IMG/VR virus record: IMGVR_UViG_2563367158_000002
DNA length: 35,353 bases
Origin: a virus
Taxonomy: Duplodnaviria > Heunggongvirae > Uroviricota > Caudoviricetes
Strand: one strand, 5' to 3'
In this document: piece by piece, positions 1,440 through 35,353 of the stretch
How the letters are laid out: every line of letters begins with the position of its first letter
Numbering within the stretch: position 1 is the first letter of the stretch
Position numbers and translations under genes: made by a program
Notes under the pieces: model-generated
Seen by the model: only the letters and a program-made list of their open reading frames with translations
Databases searched by the model: none
Told to the model about the DNA's origin: nothing

Positions 1440-1446
1440 CCGTTTC

Positions 1447-1533
1447 GCTGAAAAACATAACCCATAAAATGCTAGCTGTACCAGGAACCACCTCCTTAGC
1501 CTGTGTAATCTCCCTTACACGGGCTTATTTTTT
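1447..1533 (+). ncRNA. cyaR: CyaR (RyeE) Hfq-dependent small RNA
   Basis: Sequence gctgaaaaacataacccataaaatgctagctgtaccaggaaccacctccttagcctgtgtaatctcccttacacgggcttatttttt matches CyaR as I recall it; ends in a GC stem (gcctgtgtaa/ttacacgggc) plus U-tract; lies between yegQ and ogr as in E. coli K-12. Confidence 0.85.
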
Positions 1534-1534
1534 A
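1507..1534. repeat. attL core, 28-bp direct repeat (aatctcccttacacgggcttatttttta)
   Basis: Identical copy at 34681-34708; its reverse complement contains the P2 core AAAAAATAAGCCCGTGTAAGGGAGATT as I recall it; overlaps the 3' arm and U-tract of the cyaR terminator. Confidence 0.85.
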
Positions 1535-1597
1535 CGCGTAATACAATGAAATAAAAGGATTTATTTCTGGTCACGTCCACACATTGACCACATCGAC

Positions 1598-3098: not shown

Positions 3099-3577
3099 TA
3101 TCCCGCCCCCGTCATACCCGTGAATTTAGTTGCCATACTGCCCGCCTTACCGATGAGCGATTCCGCCTGTTTACCGATATCGCCATAAAGCGCGGCCAGT
3201 GATTCATCTACGCGGGTAAGTGACAGCGTAAAATCAATTTTCCGAGGTGTGCCGTCGGCAAAGAAAATACTCCCTGTTTCACTCACCCTGCTGATGACAT
3301 ACATGCCGTAAATCATGCCGGTGCCATCCAGCAACGGCCACGCCCGGCCTTCCTCTGCCATCAGCCTGAGCGTGGTCATCGTCAGCTTTCCGCCGGTCAG
3401 TTCGGGATAAAGCACACCGGCAAGCGTGATGTTTTCCTCGCCAACGCCGAGAAACTGGTAGGCATCCCGTTTACCGATACGGGAATTTGACGGCCAGCGA
3501 TAATCAGATTCACGCTGCATGGTCTGGTGTGGCAACGTCTGGCGCATAAAAACAAACATACCTAACGCGAGCATCAT
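3098..3577 (-). CDS. U: Tail protein U (159 aa)
   Basis: P2 gpU length and sequence; conserved position between T and D. Confidence 0.93.
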   Translation of the reverse strand: MMLALGMFVFMRQTLPHQTMQRESDYRWPSNSRIGKRDAYQFLGVGEENITLAGVLYPELTGGKLTMTTLRLMAEEGRAWPLLDGTGMIYGMYVISRVSETGSIFFADGTPRKIDFTLSLTRVDESLAALYGDIGKQAESLIGKAGSMATKFTGMTGAG

Positions 3578-8617: not shown

Positions 8618-9985
8618 TTATCTTTCTCCAACATCCTCTTCTAAAACATGATCTATCTTATCTACAGGAAGATTATCATACTTAGAAAAATCAAAACCAT
8701 CGGGAAGTTTATTTTTTGCTGCTTTTAATATTCTTATTGAATCGTTACCGTTTCTAGAGCGATTTCGCCAATAACATTGATTGTTTTTGTTTGCTCCTTC
8801 AAGCAGGGTTAACATTTGCTCGCTTGAGTAATTAGCCAAGTCTTTGTCAATAAATCTATCAAAATATATATCGGCTCGTTCGAAATCAGCGCTGTTTATA
8901 AAACAAGCAATTCCAAAATCGCGATACTCTGATTCCAAACCTAATTCGCTGCAAACATTTTTAAAAATTGCCAAATGTTGCTGGTTAAGAAAATTTCCAT
9001 TATCTCCGTATTTTTTGTAATATTTTTCAGATATTCTTTTTGTTACGCGATTAATGTGTTCCTCCGGCGATTCAGATATAAAAAAGGCTATTCCAAAATA
9101 AGATATGTTATCTTTTATAATAGGTTTTATGAGTTCTTTTACTGAATCATCCAAGGCGTTATATATTTCTTTCTCCATGGAAATGAACTCAATTAGTGCC
9201 TTAATTGCATCATGGTTATTGGAAATATTGGAGTAATAAGCAGTTTCTGCTTTAACCGAGTCCACCATGGCTTGCCTGTCTTTTTCAAATATCAGTTTCA
9301 TAGCTCTGATATTTATCTCTCTATTTTCTAATGGCTTAGCTTCTTCAGATCTAAACGAAAACTTCCACAACCCCTTGAATATCTTAACTAATACTTCCTT
9401 GTTTAAAGATTTGAAATATTTAACATCTAAGTATTTTTTAAGCGCGTTATCGGAAGGGAATAGGTCCTTTACCTTTTCTAGATCTGCAACAAATGTGGAA
9501 AGTATTTTTTGAGACATAAATGGCGGCTTGCTTAATATTACTTCTATACTATTCCTAATGTCACTTCTAATCATTTCCTGTGTTGGCTCGAATAACGTAT
9601 CTTCGTCACTTATTACTGGATGGGCAGATAAATGCCTGTGTTTTTGAATAAGTAAAACTTTATGGTTTGAAGCAGTGTCTAATAATTGAGTTCTTTCAAA
9701 AACTCTTTTAATAAGCTCTTTTTCCCATTTAGGAGAGTAAGGATCATCGTTTTGTAGTGCTTCAATTTCTAATAATATCTTTTCCGCAACAGCATCGTTA
9801 TGAACATCTCGCAGTTCTTGGAGCTTAAAAATAATATCACATACAACTACTGACCATAGCATCACGGTAGCAGAACGGTAACAACCATTAGCATAGCTCT
9901 TATAAACCTCTTCAAAATATTTTCTAGTTCTTCTATCATAAATTTTACTCTTCTGAGATTCTAATGAGAATATTCTAACGTCCAT
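8618..9985 (-). CDS. Cargo protein at the P2 Z/fun slot, 455 aa, with HEPN-like Rx4H motif (candidate abortive-infection or exclusion protein)
   Basis: Long ORF in an AT-rich island between G and FI; ATG with GGAG RBS; motif R117-H-L-S-A-H122 (plus strand 9620-9637) near the end of a roughly 130-aa helical N-terminal region; no Walker A motif. Whether it is a homolog of P2 Fun(Z) cannot be decided without alignment. Confidence 0.8.
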
Positions 9986-14944: not shown

Positions 14945-15570
14945 AGAGGACTCCCGGTTGTGCCGCCGCTGTCGCCGGGGTGTTTATGGGTATGCAGTAC
15001 CTTACCGTTTGATGAGAGTTCACCGCCGGTGTGTTCAATGTTGCCGTGCATCGTCCCGCCCTTCTGCACTTCCAGCGTGCCGGTAATCAGCCTGTTGGTG
15101 CAGACGACCTCCGGTGTGTCCAGGGTGATGCGGGTTGACGCTTTCACCATGACCACCGGCACCGTGGCAGTAACAGAATCAGAAGCCGTCACGCTGGCCG
15201 TTTTAATTCCGCTTACCGTGAGTGCACTGGTTTCGGGGTCATACTCAATCACCGCCCCGTCAGGGAAACGGATATGCAGGGCATCCGCCGACGCAGACGG
15301 CGCGGGGTTATCGCCGGAATAAATCCCCGGCAGAACGAACGCCGTGTCGAGTTCACCGCCCACGGACAGAATCAGCACCTGTTCCCCCACGGAAGGTGCC
15401 CACCATGTGCGCGAACGACCGGCGCGCTGGGTCAGCCACTGCAGCCAGTCGGTGCACATGCCGCCGGTCTGCACACGGCAGCGACCGGCATTAAGGTCGG
15501 TTTCGACGATAATGCCAGTGCGAATCATATTGCGTATAAAGCGAAGAATTTCATTGTATTGTGCATTCAT
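14941..15570 (-). CDS. V: Baseplate spike protein V (about 209 aa)
   Basis: Start at the internal ATG giving MNAQYNEILRFIRNMI...; the 235-aa ORF in the track begins at an upstream TTG; exact start uncertain. Confidence 0.88.
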   Translation of the reverse strand: MNAQYNEILRFIRNMIRTGIIVETDLNAGRCRVQTGGMCTDWLQWLTQRAGRSRTWWAPSVGEQVLILSVGGELDTAFVLPGIYSGDNPAPSASADALHIRFPDGAVIEYDPETSALTVSGIKTASVTASDSVTATVPVVMVKASTRITLDTPEVVCTNRLITGTLEVQKGGTMHGNIEHTGGELSSNGKVLHTHKHPGDSGGTTGSPL

Positions 15571-15656
15571 TCGATAATAATGATTCTGTACAATCTCGAA
15601 GTAAATCACACCACGATTTCTGGTGCACAGAACAACAAGGGACAACAAAATCCATT
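15571..15656. promoter_or_regulatory. Divergent control region: expected late promoter for V-W-J-I-H-G (minus) and promoter of the antisense cargo gene (plus)
   Basis: Position only; contains the dyad CACCA-N7-TGGTG (15609-15625) and a TACAAT-like hexamer (15588-15593). Confidence 0.35.
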
Positions 15657-16730
15657 ATGAGTACTTACTTTTTCTCGTCAGAAACAATGAAAGAATTGTT
15701 CAAAGATTATCTGGTCTTTTTGAACACGCTGACTCCCAGCACAAACTTTGAATCAAACAGAAACAAAATAATTGCTCAAGCAATAAACTTCATTTCCGAA
15801 AACCCTGAAGATTGGGACAAAAAATCCCAGTACAACATTGCTATGATTGGCGACACCTTTAAAAGTTTCTTAAGAGAAAAGGGGGAAGATAACAACAGCA
15901 TCAACCTTATATTCACTTGCTTTTTTAGATTTATCATTGAACCAAGCATTCTCTCTCCGGAAATAGAGTCTCACTTTTCACCACTAAGAACCATCAAGGA
16001 TTTTGCTCTGTATAACTATAATGAATTCGATGAGCGGAGCAGAGCACAGATAGACTTTTCTCTTAGAGAACTGCCATTAGCAATGGTTAAAGAAGTTTTA
16101 AGCTCCAGCAATGTTGACACATATAAAAAATACATTGATAGTTTAAACGAAGGGCGTCAATTTTTCGAAAAGTGCGACTCCTTCTTAAAGGAGCAACATG
16201 CCAAAATAGAGTCAATTAAAGAGTCATTAAAAGGGTATGAGGTCGCATTTAATTTTGTTGGATTGTTTGATGGCTTTAATTCACTTGGCAAAAAGAAAGA
16301 AAGTGAAATCATGCTATCAAGAATAATTCTTATCATCTTGGCTATAATCATTCCCTCCCCACTGATATACTATGGAATGCATAAATTACCAACTCTCGAA
16401 ACGACAAATGCTGCCACATATTTTATGTCAGCACTACCTTTTGCATCAGTTACATTGATTTTCATGTATTACTTTAGAGTTGTACTGATAAATCATATAT
16501 CGTTACGAACTCAGATTATGCAAATAGAACTCAGAAAGAGCCTTTGTCAGTTCATTCAGAGTTATAGCGACTATTCCTCAGAGATAAGGAAAAACAATCC
16601 GGAAGCGCTTTCAAAATTTGAAGACGTAGTATTTTCAAACATCATGCTATCCGATGATAAGATACCATCTACATTTGATGGTATTGAACAAATAGCATCG
16701 TTAATCAACGCATTGAAAAATGGCAAGTAA
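15657..16730 (+). CDS. Cargo protein at the P2 orf30 slot, 357 aa, membrane-anchored, unknown function
   Basis: AT-rich ORF on the strand opposite to the late operons; start at the ATG (15657) downstream of the V start, since the track's 389-aa version begins at a GTG overlapping V; two hydrophobic segments (IMLSRIILIILAIIIPSPLIYY and ATYFMSALPFASVTLIFMYYF) after a roughly 230-aa soluble N-terminal region; own terminator. Confidence 0.8.
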   Translation: MSTYFFSSETMKELFKDYLVFLNTLTPSTNFESNRNKIIAQAINFISENPEDWDKKSQYNIAMIGDTFKSFLREKGEDNNSINLIFTCFFRFIIEPSILSPEIESHFSPLRTIKDFALYNYNEFDERSRAQIDFSLRELPLAMVKEVLSSSNVDTYKKYIDSLNEGRQFFEKCDSFLKEQHAKIESIKESLKGYEVAFNFVGLFDGFNSLGKKKESEIMLSRIILIILAIIIPSPLIYYGMHKLPTLETTNAATYFMSALPFASVTLIFMYYFRVVLINHISLRTQIMQIELRKSLCQFIQSYSDYSSEIRKNNPEALSKFEDVVFSNIMLSDDKIPSTFDGIEQIASLINALKNGK

Positions 16731-26326: not shown

Positions 26327-27025
26327 TTACAACTTCGTCATTGCTGACTCAAATTCATCATTAAATGGCTTAATTTGAGATGATGTTAGTTTTTTTACGA
26401 ACTTTTTTGTTGTTGTTTGAACTACGATTCTACCTTCACCAAGAGCATTCCCCTGGCATTCTTTTACGAACCATTCTTGAGTTACTGATGTGGTAATACT
26501 CATTGGGATCACAAGCGTTAATATATCTCCGTAGTCTTCTAAAACATGCGGTAACTTGCCAGAGATAAGCGTCCTGGGGTTTACCAATATATTCATTGCT
26601 TTATTATTAGAAAATTGCAACACAACTGATTGAATATTACTCCTTACTTTTCTTTTGTTTGTTATGGTTATTGATATTGCTGTATCTGTAGTGCTAGGTA
26701 AGTACATTGATGGCATTAACACCATGCTATATCGAATAGCAATTTCTTCTGAATTTTCCTTTAGCGAACGGTGTGCTAACAACAATGATGTCGCAACAGC
26801 AGAAAATGCCCCCACCCCAGAAACCCAAGTACCCAACATGGTCAAAAAAGGTATTGTAATTAATTGGTATTTAGTGTCACCATTCAAACCAACACCACTA
26901 TAACCCACGTAACACCCTATAAAAAAGAATAGACAAGCCGTTATTAAAAAAAATAATAAATGCATAGAACTTATATTTTTAAATTTCAGCAACAAACCTC
27001 TTAAAATATATTTGCATCTCTTCAT
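26327..27025 (-). CDS. Cargo membrane protein B at the tin/old slot (232 aa, or 212 aa from an internal ATG), unknown function
   Basis: AT-rich ORF; basic N-terminus then two hydrophobic segments (LLFFLITACLFFFIGCYVGY and ITIPFLTMLGTWVSGVGAFSAVATSLLL) and a roughly 140-aa C-terminal domain; start uncertain (27025 or 26965). Confidence 0.7.
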   Translation of the reverse strand: MKRCKYILRGLLLKFKNISSMHLLFFLITACLFFFIGCYVGYSGVGLNGDTKYQLITIPFLTMLGTWVSGVGAFSAVATSLLLAHRSLKENSEEIAIRYSMVLMPSMYLPSTTDTAISITITNKRKVRSNIQSVVLQFSNNKAMNILVNPRTLISGKLPHVLEDYGDILTLVIPMSITTSVTQEWFVKECQGNALGEGRIVVQTTTKKFVKKLTSSQIKPFNDEFESAMTKL

Positions 27026-27123: not shown

Positions 27124-27855
27124 TCACTCACTTATAATTGATACAACCTCACCTGTTTCTACATTGACACGCGCAGCAATCGTCTGTTTCACCACTCCGC
27201 CATAAGCATTAGTTCCGCGAAACGTGGTTTTCACAATGGCATGCGGGTCTTTATTCAAAATCAGATGATATACCGTTGACACATGTTTATAAGATGAATC
27301 ATCGTTCATATTATCTTTAATTAGTTTTTCCAATGGACGATAAGAACCATCCCAACCACTAAAATTACTCTGAAATGTATCAAGATTGATTTTATTGTTT
27401 AGTGACTTCGGGTCATTTTCATAATCATTAAAGCACCACCCAAGAACATCACCGAGTTTCAACTCATCATCTTTGGTAAATGTATACTCACTCATGCAGG
27501 CATAAAACGCATCTGACGCGGCGGCTGGAACTTCCTTAAAATCAATGTAACTATTCACAATATCGTGTCGTGTTTTCTTTGACTCGTTCCGATATTCCTT
27601 GAGTGTTTTTTCACCATATTCGAATGTTTTTTGGACTTTGTGTTCTGCAACGGTTGATGTTTCAGTTTTAGCAACTGGCTGGCTTTTTTCTGTTGGATAG
27701 AGTATTGAACCAATTATGCTCAATACAAAACCACCTCCGAGATAAACCGCACTTGCACGTTTGCGGTTTGGCATTCGCACCAGTGATGGCCTGATTAACC
27801 CGATGAAGAAAGCAACGAAAAAAGCGAGTGATAGAAAAGCGATTATAGTATCCAT
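27124..27855 (-). CDS. Cargo membrane protein A at the tin/old slot (243 aa), unknown function
   Basis: Start at the ATG with AGGA RBS (aaaaaggatagctATG); two hydrophobic segments (IIAFLSLAFFVAFFIGLI and AVYLGGGFVLSIIGSILY) separated by an RKR loop, then a roughly 180-aa soluble domain; AT-rich. Confidence 0.75.
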   Translation of the reverse strand: MDTIIAFLSLAFFVAFFIGLIRPSLVRMPNRKRASAVYLGGGFVLSIIGSILYPTEKSQPVAKTETSTVAEHKVQKTFEYGEKTLKEYRNESKKTRHDIVNSYIDFKEVPAAASDAFYACMSEYTFTKDDELKLGDVLGWCFNDYENDPKSLNNKINLDTFQSNFSGWDGSYRPLEKLIKDNMNDDSSYKHVSTVYHLILNKDPHAIVKTTFRGTNAYGGVVKQTIAARVNVETGEVVSIISE

Positions 27856-28078
27856 AGCTATCCTTTTTGCATCATCCACATAAAAAATCGACCTCATGTT
27901 AGCAACAGGATGCTTACTTTTGAATATTTGTAAGTTGTTAGCTCTCCAACCTAACTCTTTTCAACCGTCAAAAACCAGCACCAACGCAGTAAAAATATGT
28001 CTGTCAACTAACGCCTCGCTTCGCTCGTTGTTCAACCCCGCCAGCCCTGAAAACAAGTTTCACGACTGGCGGCGTTCT

Positions 28079-33587: not shown

Positions 33588-34601
33588 ATGGCAATCAAAA
33601 AACTCGATGATGGTCGATATGAAGTGGACATCCGCCCTACTGGACGTAACGGAAAACGCATCCGTAGGAAGTTTGATAAGAAAAGCGAAGCTGTCGCTTT
33701 CGAAAAATACACGTTGTACAACCACCACAATAAAGAATGGCTATCAAAACCAACAGACAAACGACGTCTGTCGGAACTGACACAGATCTGGTGGGATTTA
33801 AAGGGTAAACACGAAGAGCATGGGAAATCTAATCTTGGAAAAATTGAAATCTTCACAAAAATAACGAATGACCCATGCGCATTTCAAATCACGAAATCCC
33901 TTATCAGCCAGTACTGCGCCACCCGAAGAAGTCAGGGTATTAAACCTTCGAGTATCAATCGTGATTTAACATGTATTAGCGGCATGTTTACAGCCCTGAT
34001 TGAAGCGGAGTTATTCTTTGGTGAGCACCCTATCAGAGGGACAAAGAGGCTTAAGGAGGAAAAACCAGAAACAGGCTATCTCACACAGGAAGAAATTGCC
34101 TTACTGCTTGCAGCACTTGACGGCGACAATAAAAAGATTGCGATTCTTTGCCTGAGTACAGGAGCACGTTGGGGAGAAGCAGCTCGTTTGAAAGCAGAAA
34201 ATATCATCCATAACCGCGTCACGTTTGTTAAAACGAAAACAAACAAACCACGCACCGTCCCGATCTCAGAGGCTGTTGCCAAAATGATCGCGGATAACAA
34301 ACGAGGTTTTTTATTCCCTGATGCTGATTACCCTCGCTTCAGACGAACAATGAAAGCAATAAAACCGGATTTGCCAACGGGGCAAGCCACACATGCACTA
34401 AGGCACAGCTTTGCCACTCATTTCATGATTAATGGAGGAAGTATTATCACGCTACAACGGATACTAGGTCACACGCGGATTGAGCAAACTATGGTTTACG
34501 CTCATTTTGCGCCAGAGTACCTTCAGGACGCCATTTCTCTTAATCCGCTAAGAGGTGGTACTGAGGCCGAGAGTGTCCACACAGTGTCCACAGTAGAGTA
34601 A
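33588..34601 (+). CDS. int: Tyrosine integrase (337 aa)
   Basis: P2 Int length; C-terminal catalytic residues (ARWGE...HALRHSFATHF...MVYAHF); adjacent to attR. Confidence 0.93.
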   Translation: MAIKKLDDGRYEVDIRPTGRNGKRIRRKFDKKSEAVAFEKYTLYNHHNKEWLSKPTDKRRLSELTQIWWDLKGKHEEHGKSNLGKIEIFTKITNDPCAFQITKSLISQYCATRRSQGIKPSSINRDLTCISGMFTALIEAELFFGEHPIRGTKRLKEEKPETGYLTQEEIALLLAALDGDNKKIAILCLSTGARWGEAARLKAENIIHNRVTFVKTKTNKPRTVPISEAVAKMIADNKRGFLFPDADYPRFRRTMKAIKPDLPTGQATHALRHSFATHFMINGGSIITLQRILGHTRIEQTMVYAHFAPEYLQDAISLNPLRGGTEAESVHTVSTVE

Positions 34602-34680
34602 CGTTTAAGGGCTTTCAGTGGTAATTTATGCCGCTCAAACCCGCATTGTACCGTTGAAAGCCCCTACTGGTGACACCCTA

Positions 34681-34708
34681 AATCTCCCTTACACGGGCTT
34701 ATTTTTTA
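34681..34708. repeat. attR core, 28-bp direct repeat identical to 1507-1534
   Basis: Exact repeat read in the sequence; about 80 bp downstream of the int stop. Confidence 0.85.
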
Positions 34709-35035
34709 TGCATAAGCCCTATCCCTGGTCACCGTCTTCCATTGACCACATCGATAGAATCCTCCTTCATAGCACGATGCTTTTCACTTATCGACATCGT
34801 GCTCGCACAGGTTCCGGTTACGCACAGCCAGAACGCGCATGTTTGACGCTTACCAAAAAATGAACCTAAAGCATTGGAACATTTTTGACATCATTTTCTG
34901 ATGGCTGCATAAAATAAAAATTCTGCTTTAGTTTCATCTATCTGTTTGTCATTATTACTCACATTCAATAATGGTGTTGAAGAATATCCCATCACAGATA
35001 AAATAAATATGTGCATGGTAGTCTTGAATCTATTC

Positions 35036-35353
35036 TCACTCTCCACATTTGAATGTCAGACGAGCGACGCCATGTAATCCTGCACCTTCTGTCTTCAGGT
35101 CAACTATCTGCATTTTTTTGCCCTGAGTAACACAGAAATGAACTGCATCATTTTTTACTATATTTTCTGCACCAGATATTCTACCCCTGGCTAAAGAAGC
35201 TTCGGCTTCGGTGTAGTATTGGTTATCGAGTTTACGCTGAATATTACTTTTATATGCAAGGCCAAATTTACCGATACTTGTCTCATCATTATGCACAGCA
35301 CAACCAGACATAAGAAAAACACTAATTAATGATATAGCAGCTATCTTTTTCAC
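35036..35353 (-). CDS. yegR: Host lipoprotein-like protein YegR (105 aa)
   Basis: MKKIAAISLISVFLMSGC signal peptide and lipobox; recognised as YegR, which flanks the cyaR/ogrK locus in E. coli K-12; start codon is at the window edge. Confidence 0.8.
   Translation of the reverse strand: MKKIAAISLISVFLMSGCAVHNDETSIGKFGLAYKSNIQRKLDNQYYTEAEASLARGRISGAENIVKNDAVHFCVTQGKKMQIVDLKTEGAGLHGVARLTFKCGE

Follow-up and report, generated by a model that had tools for sequence, protein, structure and literature searches.

The window, by which we mean the whole 35,353-nt stretch of DNA analyzed, contains in order the gene yegQ/trhP (1–1362, at its left end), the small RNA gene cyaR (1445..1530, plus strand; full-length match to Rfam RF00112, 100.7 bits), a 33-kb P2-like prophage, and yegR, a 105-amino-acid orphan lipoprotein-like gene (35036..35353, minus strand; taken from the list of open reading frames and annotated as yegR in related genomes). 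Both junctions of the prophage are marked by the 27-nt core AATCTCCCTTACACGGGCTTATTTTTT, an exact repeat present in two copies in the window. The cyaR-side copy (1507..1533; attL in the orientation of the window) matches the attP core annotated in P2 (AF063097) and constitutes the 3′ half and the U-tail of the cyaR terminator, and the exact repeat of it at the yegR-side junction is located at 34681..34707 (attR in the same orientation). The ogr-proximal arm of the resident prophage contains an IHF-binding region (1532..1565) and an Int arm-type binding site (1569..1596). The two were placed using the protein_bind annotations of AF063097 (locus L004), where they correspond to positions 626–659 and, as "Int, P arm", 663–690, with a constant offset of 906 for the IHF region. 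The same 28-nt stretch is annotated as an Int site in P2; on its core side lies the IHF site, and on its other side are the ogr terminator and ogr. The resident Int site contains the direct repeats GTCCACA and GACCACA, which are the complement of tgTGGaCa, the consensus of the direct repeats that form P2-type arm sites (PMC3448106). At the other end of the prophage, the integrase gene (33588..34601, plus strand, from the list of open reading frames) aligns with int of AF063097, and the int-proximal arm (34567..34664; positions 487–584 of L004, offset 34080) contains two GTGTCCACA repeats, starting at 34575 and 34586, and then the Cox-binding region. In AF063097 the arm adjoining int, with the other Int site and the Cox sites, is named P′ and the ogr-proximal arm P; the preliminary description of this DNA had swapped the labels, calling the ogr-proximal arm P′.

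Several genes of the resident prophage were also noted. The product of a 455-amino-acid gene (8618–9985, minus strand) matches the anti-phage defense protein PD-T7-3 (PADLOC, E = 3e-168) and gave no match in Pfam or PHROG; this gene probably occupies a P2 cargo hotspot. Three further open reading frames (15561–16730 on the plus strand; 26327–27025 and 27124–27897 on the minus strand), which are located at the usual variable-cargo positions of P2-like phages, have only PHROG matches of "unknown function" and none in Pfam or PADLOC.

The preliminary description had pointed out that the bacterial flank to the right of attR contains a degenerate copy of the ogr-proximal arm, and this observation proved to be real, though slightly overstated. 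The flank segment GGTCACCGTCTTCCATTGACCACATCGA was correctly located at 34727–34754, while its phage counterpart GGTCACGTCCACACATTGACCACATCGA extends from 1569 to 1596 rather than to 1597. The reported agreement at about 25 of 28 positions is reached once two 1-nt gaps are allowed; without gaps the identity is 22 of 28, with a block of 6 nt and a block of 14 nt. When the 120 nt to the right of the attL core were compared with the 160 nt to the right of the attR core, the local alignment score was 46, as compared to 21.7 ± 3.9 for dinucleotide shuffles, of which 1 in 2000 reached this value. The longest exact word in common was 15 nt, as compared to a maximum of 11 nt in 500 shuffles, and the sequence ATTGACCACATCGA occurs in only two places in the 35-kb window, which are these two segments. 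As described earlier, the motif lies just beyond the core in both places, although the offsets differ: it starts 35 nt after the core on the phage side at attL and 19 nt after the core on the flank side at attR. The likeness reaches further than the motif, because it is also seen in the 8 nt directly after the core, which are ACGCGTAA in the phage and ATGCATAA in the flank, and in TATTTCTGG as compared to TATCCCTGG. Hence, the similarity starts at the core, covers the IHF region and continues up to the end of the Int site, and such phage-arm homology contiguous with the core is a property of att scars.

The alignment with the P2 attP (AF063097/NC_001895), which had been proposed as a check, identified the flank copy as a relic of the annotated Int site. 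The relic arm, delimited at 34708..34757 by the alignment statistics, the multiple alignment and the genome distribution described below, begins with ATGCATAA and keeps the same order of core, IHF-region relic and Int site as the ogr-proximal arm of P2, with the 25 gapped matches falling over the 28-nt Int footprint. It differs from the P2 arm in that the IHF region of the common allele is reduced by 16 nt, the first repeat is destroyed, and no ogr terminator or ogr comes after it. The repeats of the flank read GTCTTCC and GACCACA, where the phage has GTCCACA and GACCACA; thus, the first one (34733–34740, CGTCTTCC) is decayed, while the second (34744–34750) is intact. [quoted passage not shown] A scan of the flank for promoters and terminators gave nothing above background. 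Just after the relic arm, and within the island described below, there is a 9-bp perfect inverted repeat with a 15-nt loop (34771..34803; AGCACGATG ... CATCGTGCT), which is kept in E. coli with small changes; a simple scan called no terminator there, and no T-run follows it on either strand.

The search of 5426 complete E. coli genomes with a 754-nt query around attR showed that the flank is present in 5418 of them. The 55 nt directly to the right of the core were found in 5408 of the 5426 genomes, with an identity of 95% or more in 5254 of 5409 matching records. In 948 of the 5426 genomes, 80% or more of the 754-nt query is covered; such coverage needs the long form of the locus, which contains a 170-nt segment (34862..35031) located 4 nt 3′ of the yegR stop codon. 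Only a minority of E. coli have this segment, and in K-12 and most strains the short form instead joins AAAAAAT to ATTCTCAC. A synthetic query, in which the 3′ end of cyaR was fused to the flank and an unbroken match over 80% or more of its length was required, detected unoccupied sites with the motif directly adjoining cyaR in 4218 genomes, including Nissle 1917, which matches the synthetic empty site at 100%. The presence of the motif in unoccupied sites of strains with no P2-like history had been taken in advance as speaking against an earlier insertion. Taken literally, this is what the 4218 sites show, yet the idea stands, because these "unoccupied" sites all carry the relic, while truly virgin sites, in which yegS comes directly after cyaR, were found only outside E. 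coli and are without the motif among the loci listed.

To compare the host copies with phage arms, an alignment was made of P2, the resident phage, 12 other P2-like arms located next to cyaR in other species, and the host relics. Both repeats are recognizable in 14 of 14 phage arms, while at least the first repeat is lost in every host relic. The IHF region of E. coli YL03 retains 12 of the 16 missing nucleotides (GGATTGAT as compared to GGATTTAT), and reads ...CATAGAGACGGATTGATCC... where the phage has ...GAAATAAAAGGATTTATTTC... This minority allele, noted in YL03 (L125) and about 140 genomes in the 80–90% identity band of the search with the synthetic query, has GGTGAC for GGTCAC in addition to the 12 extra nucleotides of the IHF region. 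In strain SCPM-O-B-8794 the IHF region is of full length (ATACGTAACCAATTGAATTAAAAGATTTGTTTCTGGTTACG), and both Int repeats are lost. This strain was deposited as E. coli, but its yegQ is about 93% identical to that of the window, which makes it approximately as distant as E. whittamii. The alleles of YL03 and SCPM-O-B-8794 are thus intermediates between the phage arm and the common flank. Both SCPM-O-B-8794 and E. coli have CTT where the first repeat of the phage has CAC, which points to one common ancestral insertion. The relic contains ATCGATA, as do the Citrobacter and Enterobacter phages, where P2 has ATCGACA.

These comparisons bear on whether the host-side copy could be a functional Int arm-type site, which would be kept as an aid to the integration or excision of P2-like phages, and which the preliminary description had considered as conserved Int arm-type sites in the host. 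The intact GACCACA repeat fits the tgTGGaCa consensus, it is unchanged together with its surroundings (TTGACCACAT) in all E. coli and Shigella sequences inspected, and the high identity of the 55-nt stretch among matching records could be read in the same way. However, conservation of this stretch within E. coli is no higher than that of the neighboring flank, which is 94–97% identical, and additional changes in the motif are found in Shigella. The arm sites of P2 work as pairs of direct repeats (PMC3448106), while here the first repeat has been destroyed, the distance from the core is reduced by 16 nt, and part of the IHF region is missing. SCPM-O-B-8794, which carries the same island, has lost both repeats, and there is no obvious host reason to keep a landing aid for phages. 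Hence, a conserved functional site is unlikely, and the fossil arm, which keeps one consensus repeat but lacks its partner and a portion of the IHF site, is most likely inert and non-functional. We likewise consider it unlikely that the surviving repeat might offer Int a host-side arm contact, which could aid the marked preference of P2 for this site or bias excision, and, as a separate matter, that yegR might be domesticated cargo of the ancient phage.

The state of the locus before any insertion was examined in species-representative genomes, which were searched with a cyaR seed, yielding at least 120 loci; neither E. fergusonii nor E. marmotae is named among the loci listed, and the locus of E. 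ruysiae (L110) holds a P2-like prophage, with its 8-kb block ending before the yegR side. In E. whittamii and Escherichia sp. E1V33 the upstream region of yegS comes directly after cyaR, with yegS starting at about 100 nt, and the interval between cyaR and yegS in these two contains neither the motif nor yegR. Among the 120 species loci listed, yegS starts no more than 250 nt from cyaR in 65. The adjacency of cyaR and yegS is the ancestral state, and the absence of the motif from the unoccupied sites of related lineages (E. whittamii and E1V33) is as expected for an att scar. Relative to these sites, E. coli, Shigella (S. flexneri) and SCPM-O-B-8794 contain an extra block of 0.8–1.0 kb, which begins precisely where the core ends and includes yegR. 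This distribution within Escherichia is patchy, so that loss or transfer by recombination must be invoked.

The virgin sites are also informative about the direction of transfer, because the phage arm could in principle be host DNA that was picked up from downstream of cyaR, for instance through imprecise excision. The continuation of the likeness past the 27-nt core would fit such a capture, and phage attP sites often include the 3′ end of the gene at which the phage integrates. However, the virgin cyaR–yegS sites among the loci listed do not contain the sequence, and the degraded copies are those of the hosts. Moreover, the arm, beginning some 6 nt past the core and passing through the Int site into ogr, is 96–98% identical in P2-like phages that match only after the core; L-413C and W-phi, whose attP core differs (PMC3448106), are among the phages that have the arm with a different core. 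The tgTGGaCa repeats are also general in the arms of P2-type phages (PMC3448106). Capture of the arm from the host is therefore quite improbable.

The far end of the block is located beyond the right end of the window, and it was located at 3462–3506 of L001. The block ends in a degenerate core, which is in register with the ancestral 3′ end of cyaR and reads GAATCCCCATACCTGAACTGACTTTTT in E. coli and CTGAATCTCTCTTATGCAGACTGA in SCPM-O-B-8794. The homology to the upstream region of E. whittamii yegS resumes at CGACTTTCATCC..., and the sequence before this point is CTGAATCCCCATACCTGAACTGACTTTTTATCCTC in E. coli and CTGAATCTCTCTTATGCAGACTGACGGTTTATCCCA in SCPM-O-B-8794, as compared to GTAATCTCCCTTACGCAGGCTTATTTTTTGCCTCA at the ancestral end of cyaR. 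When the core was compared in fixed register, 0–3 of 2000 shuffles matched as well for SCPM-O-B-8794, and 15–110 of 2000 for E. coli. The int-proximal arm together with the core, compared with the terminal 200 nt of the block in E. coli, scored 47, as compared to 22.9 ± 4.1 for shuffles, of which 0–1 in 1000 reached this value. The similarity of the int-proximal arm alone to the right end in E. coli was weak or marginal (30 as compared to 20.9 ± 3.7; 28 of 1000 shuffles), and at the right end of SCPM-O-B-8794 it was not detectable. The presence of another core copy at the distal end, here a degenerate one, is a further property of att scars, and an intact core next to cyaR combined with a decayed one towards yegS is characteristic of an integrated element. 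Because the block starts at the intact core and ends in the degenerate one, the flank in the window is the left end of a P2-like scar that is found across the species.

The content of the block differs from its surroundings in base composition, with a GC content of 36.9% as compared to 49–54% in the flanking genes and 50.6% in the prophage. No phage genes or pseudogenes were recognizable in it, and a tblastx comparison with the resident prophage gave nothing beyond the arm. Distant blastn and YegR tblastn searches of a phage collection returned only two records, both of which include host flank; a PHROG match of YegR (phrog_21109) was set aside, because it probably reflects contamination of prophage records by host flank. 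YegR gave no match in a local copy of Pfam, while the protein database lists it under PF27694 (YegR), without functional annotation. It is an orphan restricted to Escherichia with few distant homologs, of which one is flanked by IS elements in Enterobacter and one is located in an unrelated chromosomal locus, neither being linked to P2. The gene may have come with the phage or on its own.

The 3′ end of cyaR was also found to be an insertion hotspot in Enterobacteriaceae, with intervals of 0.6–4.4 kb between cyaR and yegS in 28 of the 120 loci listed (L016, L063, L109 and others). A 634-nt insert is common to about a dozen Enterobacter loci. At least two of the inserts, in Citrobacter sp. Awk 4 and Enterobacter sp. 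Bisph1, start with a P2-type arm and look like short remnants. In E. albertii NBRC 107761 (L057) the P2-type arm adjoining cyaR is cut off after the first Int repeat, and it is followed by an IS3-like fragment and three open reading frames resembling cdtA, cdtB and cdtC of cytolethal distending toxin. The whole of this lies at about 100 to 3050 nt after the cyaR seed, and the locus represents another decayed P2-like insertion, in which cargo was kept. Short P2 remnants at cyaR thus occur independently in K-12, E. albertii, Citrobacter sp. Awk 4 and Enterobacter sp. Bisph1, and these four hosts indicate that decay at this site is recurrent.

A further observation concerns the cyaR terminator itself, which was compared in L025, L057, L123 and most of the loci L005–L124. 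The 3′ half of the terminator in E. coli is TTACACGGGC, identical to the P2 core, while it is TTACGCAGGC in E. whittamii, E1V33, E. albertii and many other Enterobacteriaceae among the loci listed, and TTACGCGGGC in most of the remaining ones, chiefly Klebsiella, Raoultella and Enterobacter; the terminator types can be written as ACACGGGC and ACGCAGGC. Because the E. coli terminator is equal to the P2 core and those of the other species differ, the last nucleotides of E. coli cyaR may themselves be derived from a phage by an ancient integration.

Textbooks give the cyaR site as the preferred attachment site of P2, and it is treated as plain bacterial DNA. The remnant found at this site in K-12 was reportedly described by Barreiro and Haggard-Ljungquist in 1992, and the preliminary description had likened the flank of the window to this ogrK/yegZ remnant. 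The K-12 (ogrK–D′) remnant and the fossil are alike in being decayed P2-like insertions at the cyaR core, with the core intact on the cyaR side and the other junction damaged. They differ in that the remnant is young, being nearly identical to living phages, keeps ogr (as ogrK) and part of D (the D′ fragment, yegZ), and is confined to K-12-like strains, while the fossil is located outside it, is present in nearly all E. coli, and has neither ogr nor a fragment of gene D. The alignment with the K-12 region, which had also been proposed, showed that the remnant's own arm adjoins cyaR and is 97–100% like that of the resident phage, while the degraded motif is found beyond the right end of the remnant, where it follows a partial core (CTACACGGGCTTATTTTTTT). 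These two copies are at opposite ends of the remnant, which indicates that they are separate and of different ages. The distribution together with the position in K-12 also indicates that the degraded copy is fixed on the E. coli side, independent of both the resident prophage and the K-12 remnant. Hence, the degraded copy is a species-wide fossil, older than the K-12 remnant and underlying every later insertion, and not a strain-specific remnant, as is also evident from its presence in 5408 of 5426 genomes.

A common origin of the flank and the K-12 remnant in one event, with further trimming in the window, would account for the shared locus and for the known presence of a P2 remnant in K-12. 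However, the degraded copy is found in 4218 sites without any ogr or D sequence, and K-12 has both arms, a near-perfect one by cyaR and a degraded one at the other end, so that an identity of the two is refuted by the K-12 alignment and a shared event is highly improbable. A chance resemblance, for which only the short length of the motif speaks, can be dismissed as next to impossible given the shuffle results, the length of the longest common word, and the equivalent places of both copies next to cores.

Altogether, the stretch to the right of attR is most likely what erosion has left of the ogr-proximal attachment arm of a P2-like prophage that integrated long ago. The proposal of a decayed earlier P2-like insertion is therefore upheld by the homology, the distribution, the virgin sites of the outgroups and the second degenerate core. 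We infer the following order of events. In an ancestor of E. coli, an ancient P2-like phage would have inserted at the 3′ end of cyaR, and nearly the whole prophage would then have been lost, leaving the AT-rich yegR block of 0.8–1.0 kb. The cyaR-side core would have been preserved, presumably through selection on cyaR, because this core is also the terminator of the gene, while the yegS-side core would have decayed, as there was no constraint on that copy. Later P2-like phages, including that of the window and the source of ogrK–D′ in K-12, would have used the intact core, and as a result of this re-use each new prophage would have the fossil arm as its apparent "bacterial" flank. The surviving core with the fossil arm would thus be the attB as seen by later phages, and the K-12 remnant would be a later layer, the second one at this site. 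The "empty" site of E. coli is, in the nomenclature of P2, a fossil P-O-B′ junction.

Scars at tRNA and small RNA genes, in which the att copy on the side of the gene is kept and the distal copy decays, are of a familiar kind. The locus described here resembles them in the intact core within the gene, the degenerate far repeat, the AT-rich orphan gene in between and the re-use of the site. It is unlike other att scars in the very small size and very wide distribution of the remnant, as a result of which the site is entered as empty in genome papers; cyaR was recorded there as the P2 site that holds ogr-D′ in K-12, while E. coli Crooks was given as "-" (empty) (PMC3032704). In the literature searched, outside of which were Barreiro 1992 and Yu and Haggard-Ljungquist 1993, no description was found of an older, species-wide relic or of yegR as lying between att copies.

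The cyaR fossil reveals no new mechanism, but it does show that the classic landing site of P2 is not virgin DNA, because it is one end of an older P2-like insertion. Hence, lists of "empty" cyaR sites need correction, and the similarity of phage and host past the 27-nt core is explained. The finding also places the orphan gene yegR inside a block delimited by phage sequences. For P2-like phages and their hosts, it means that an att core located in the terminator of a functional small RNA stays usable for new phages while the old prophage erodes.
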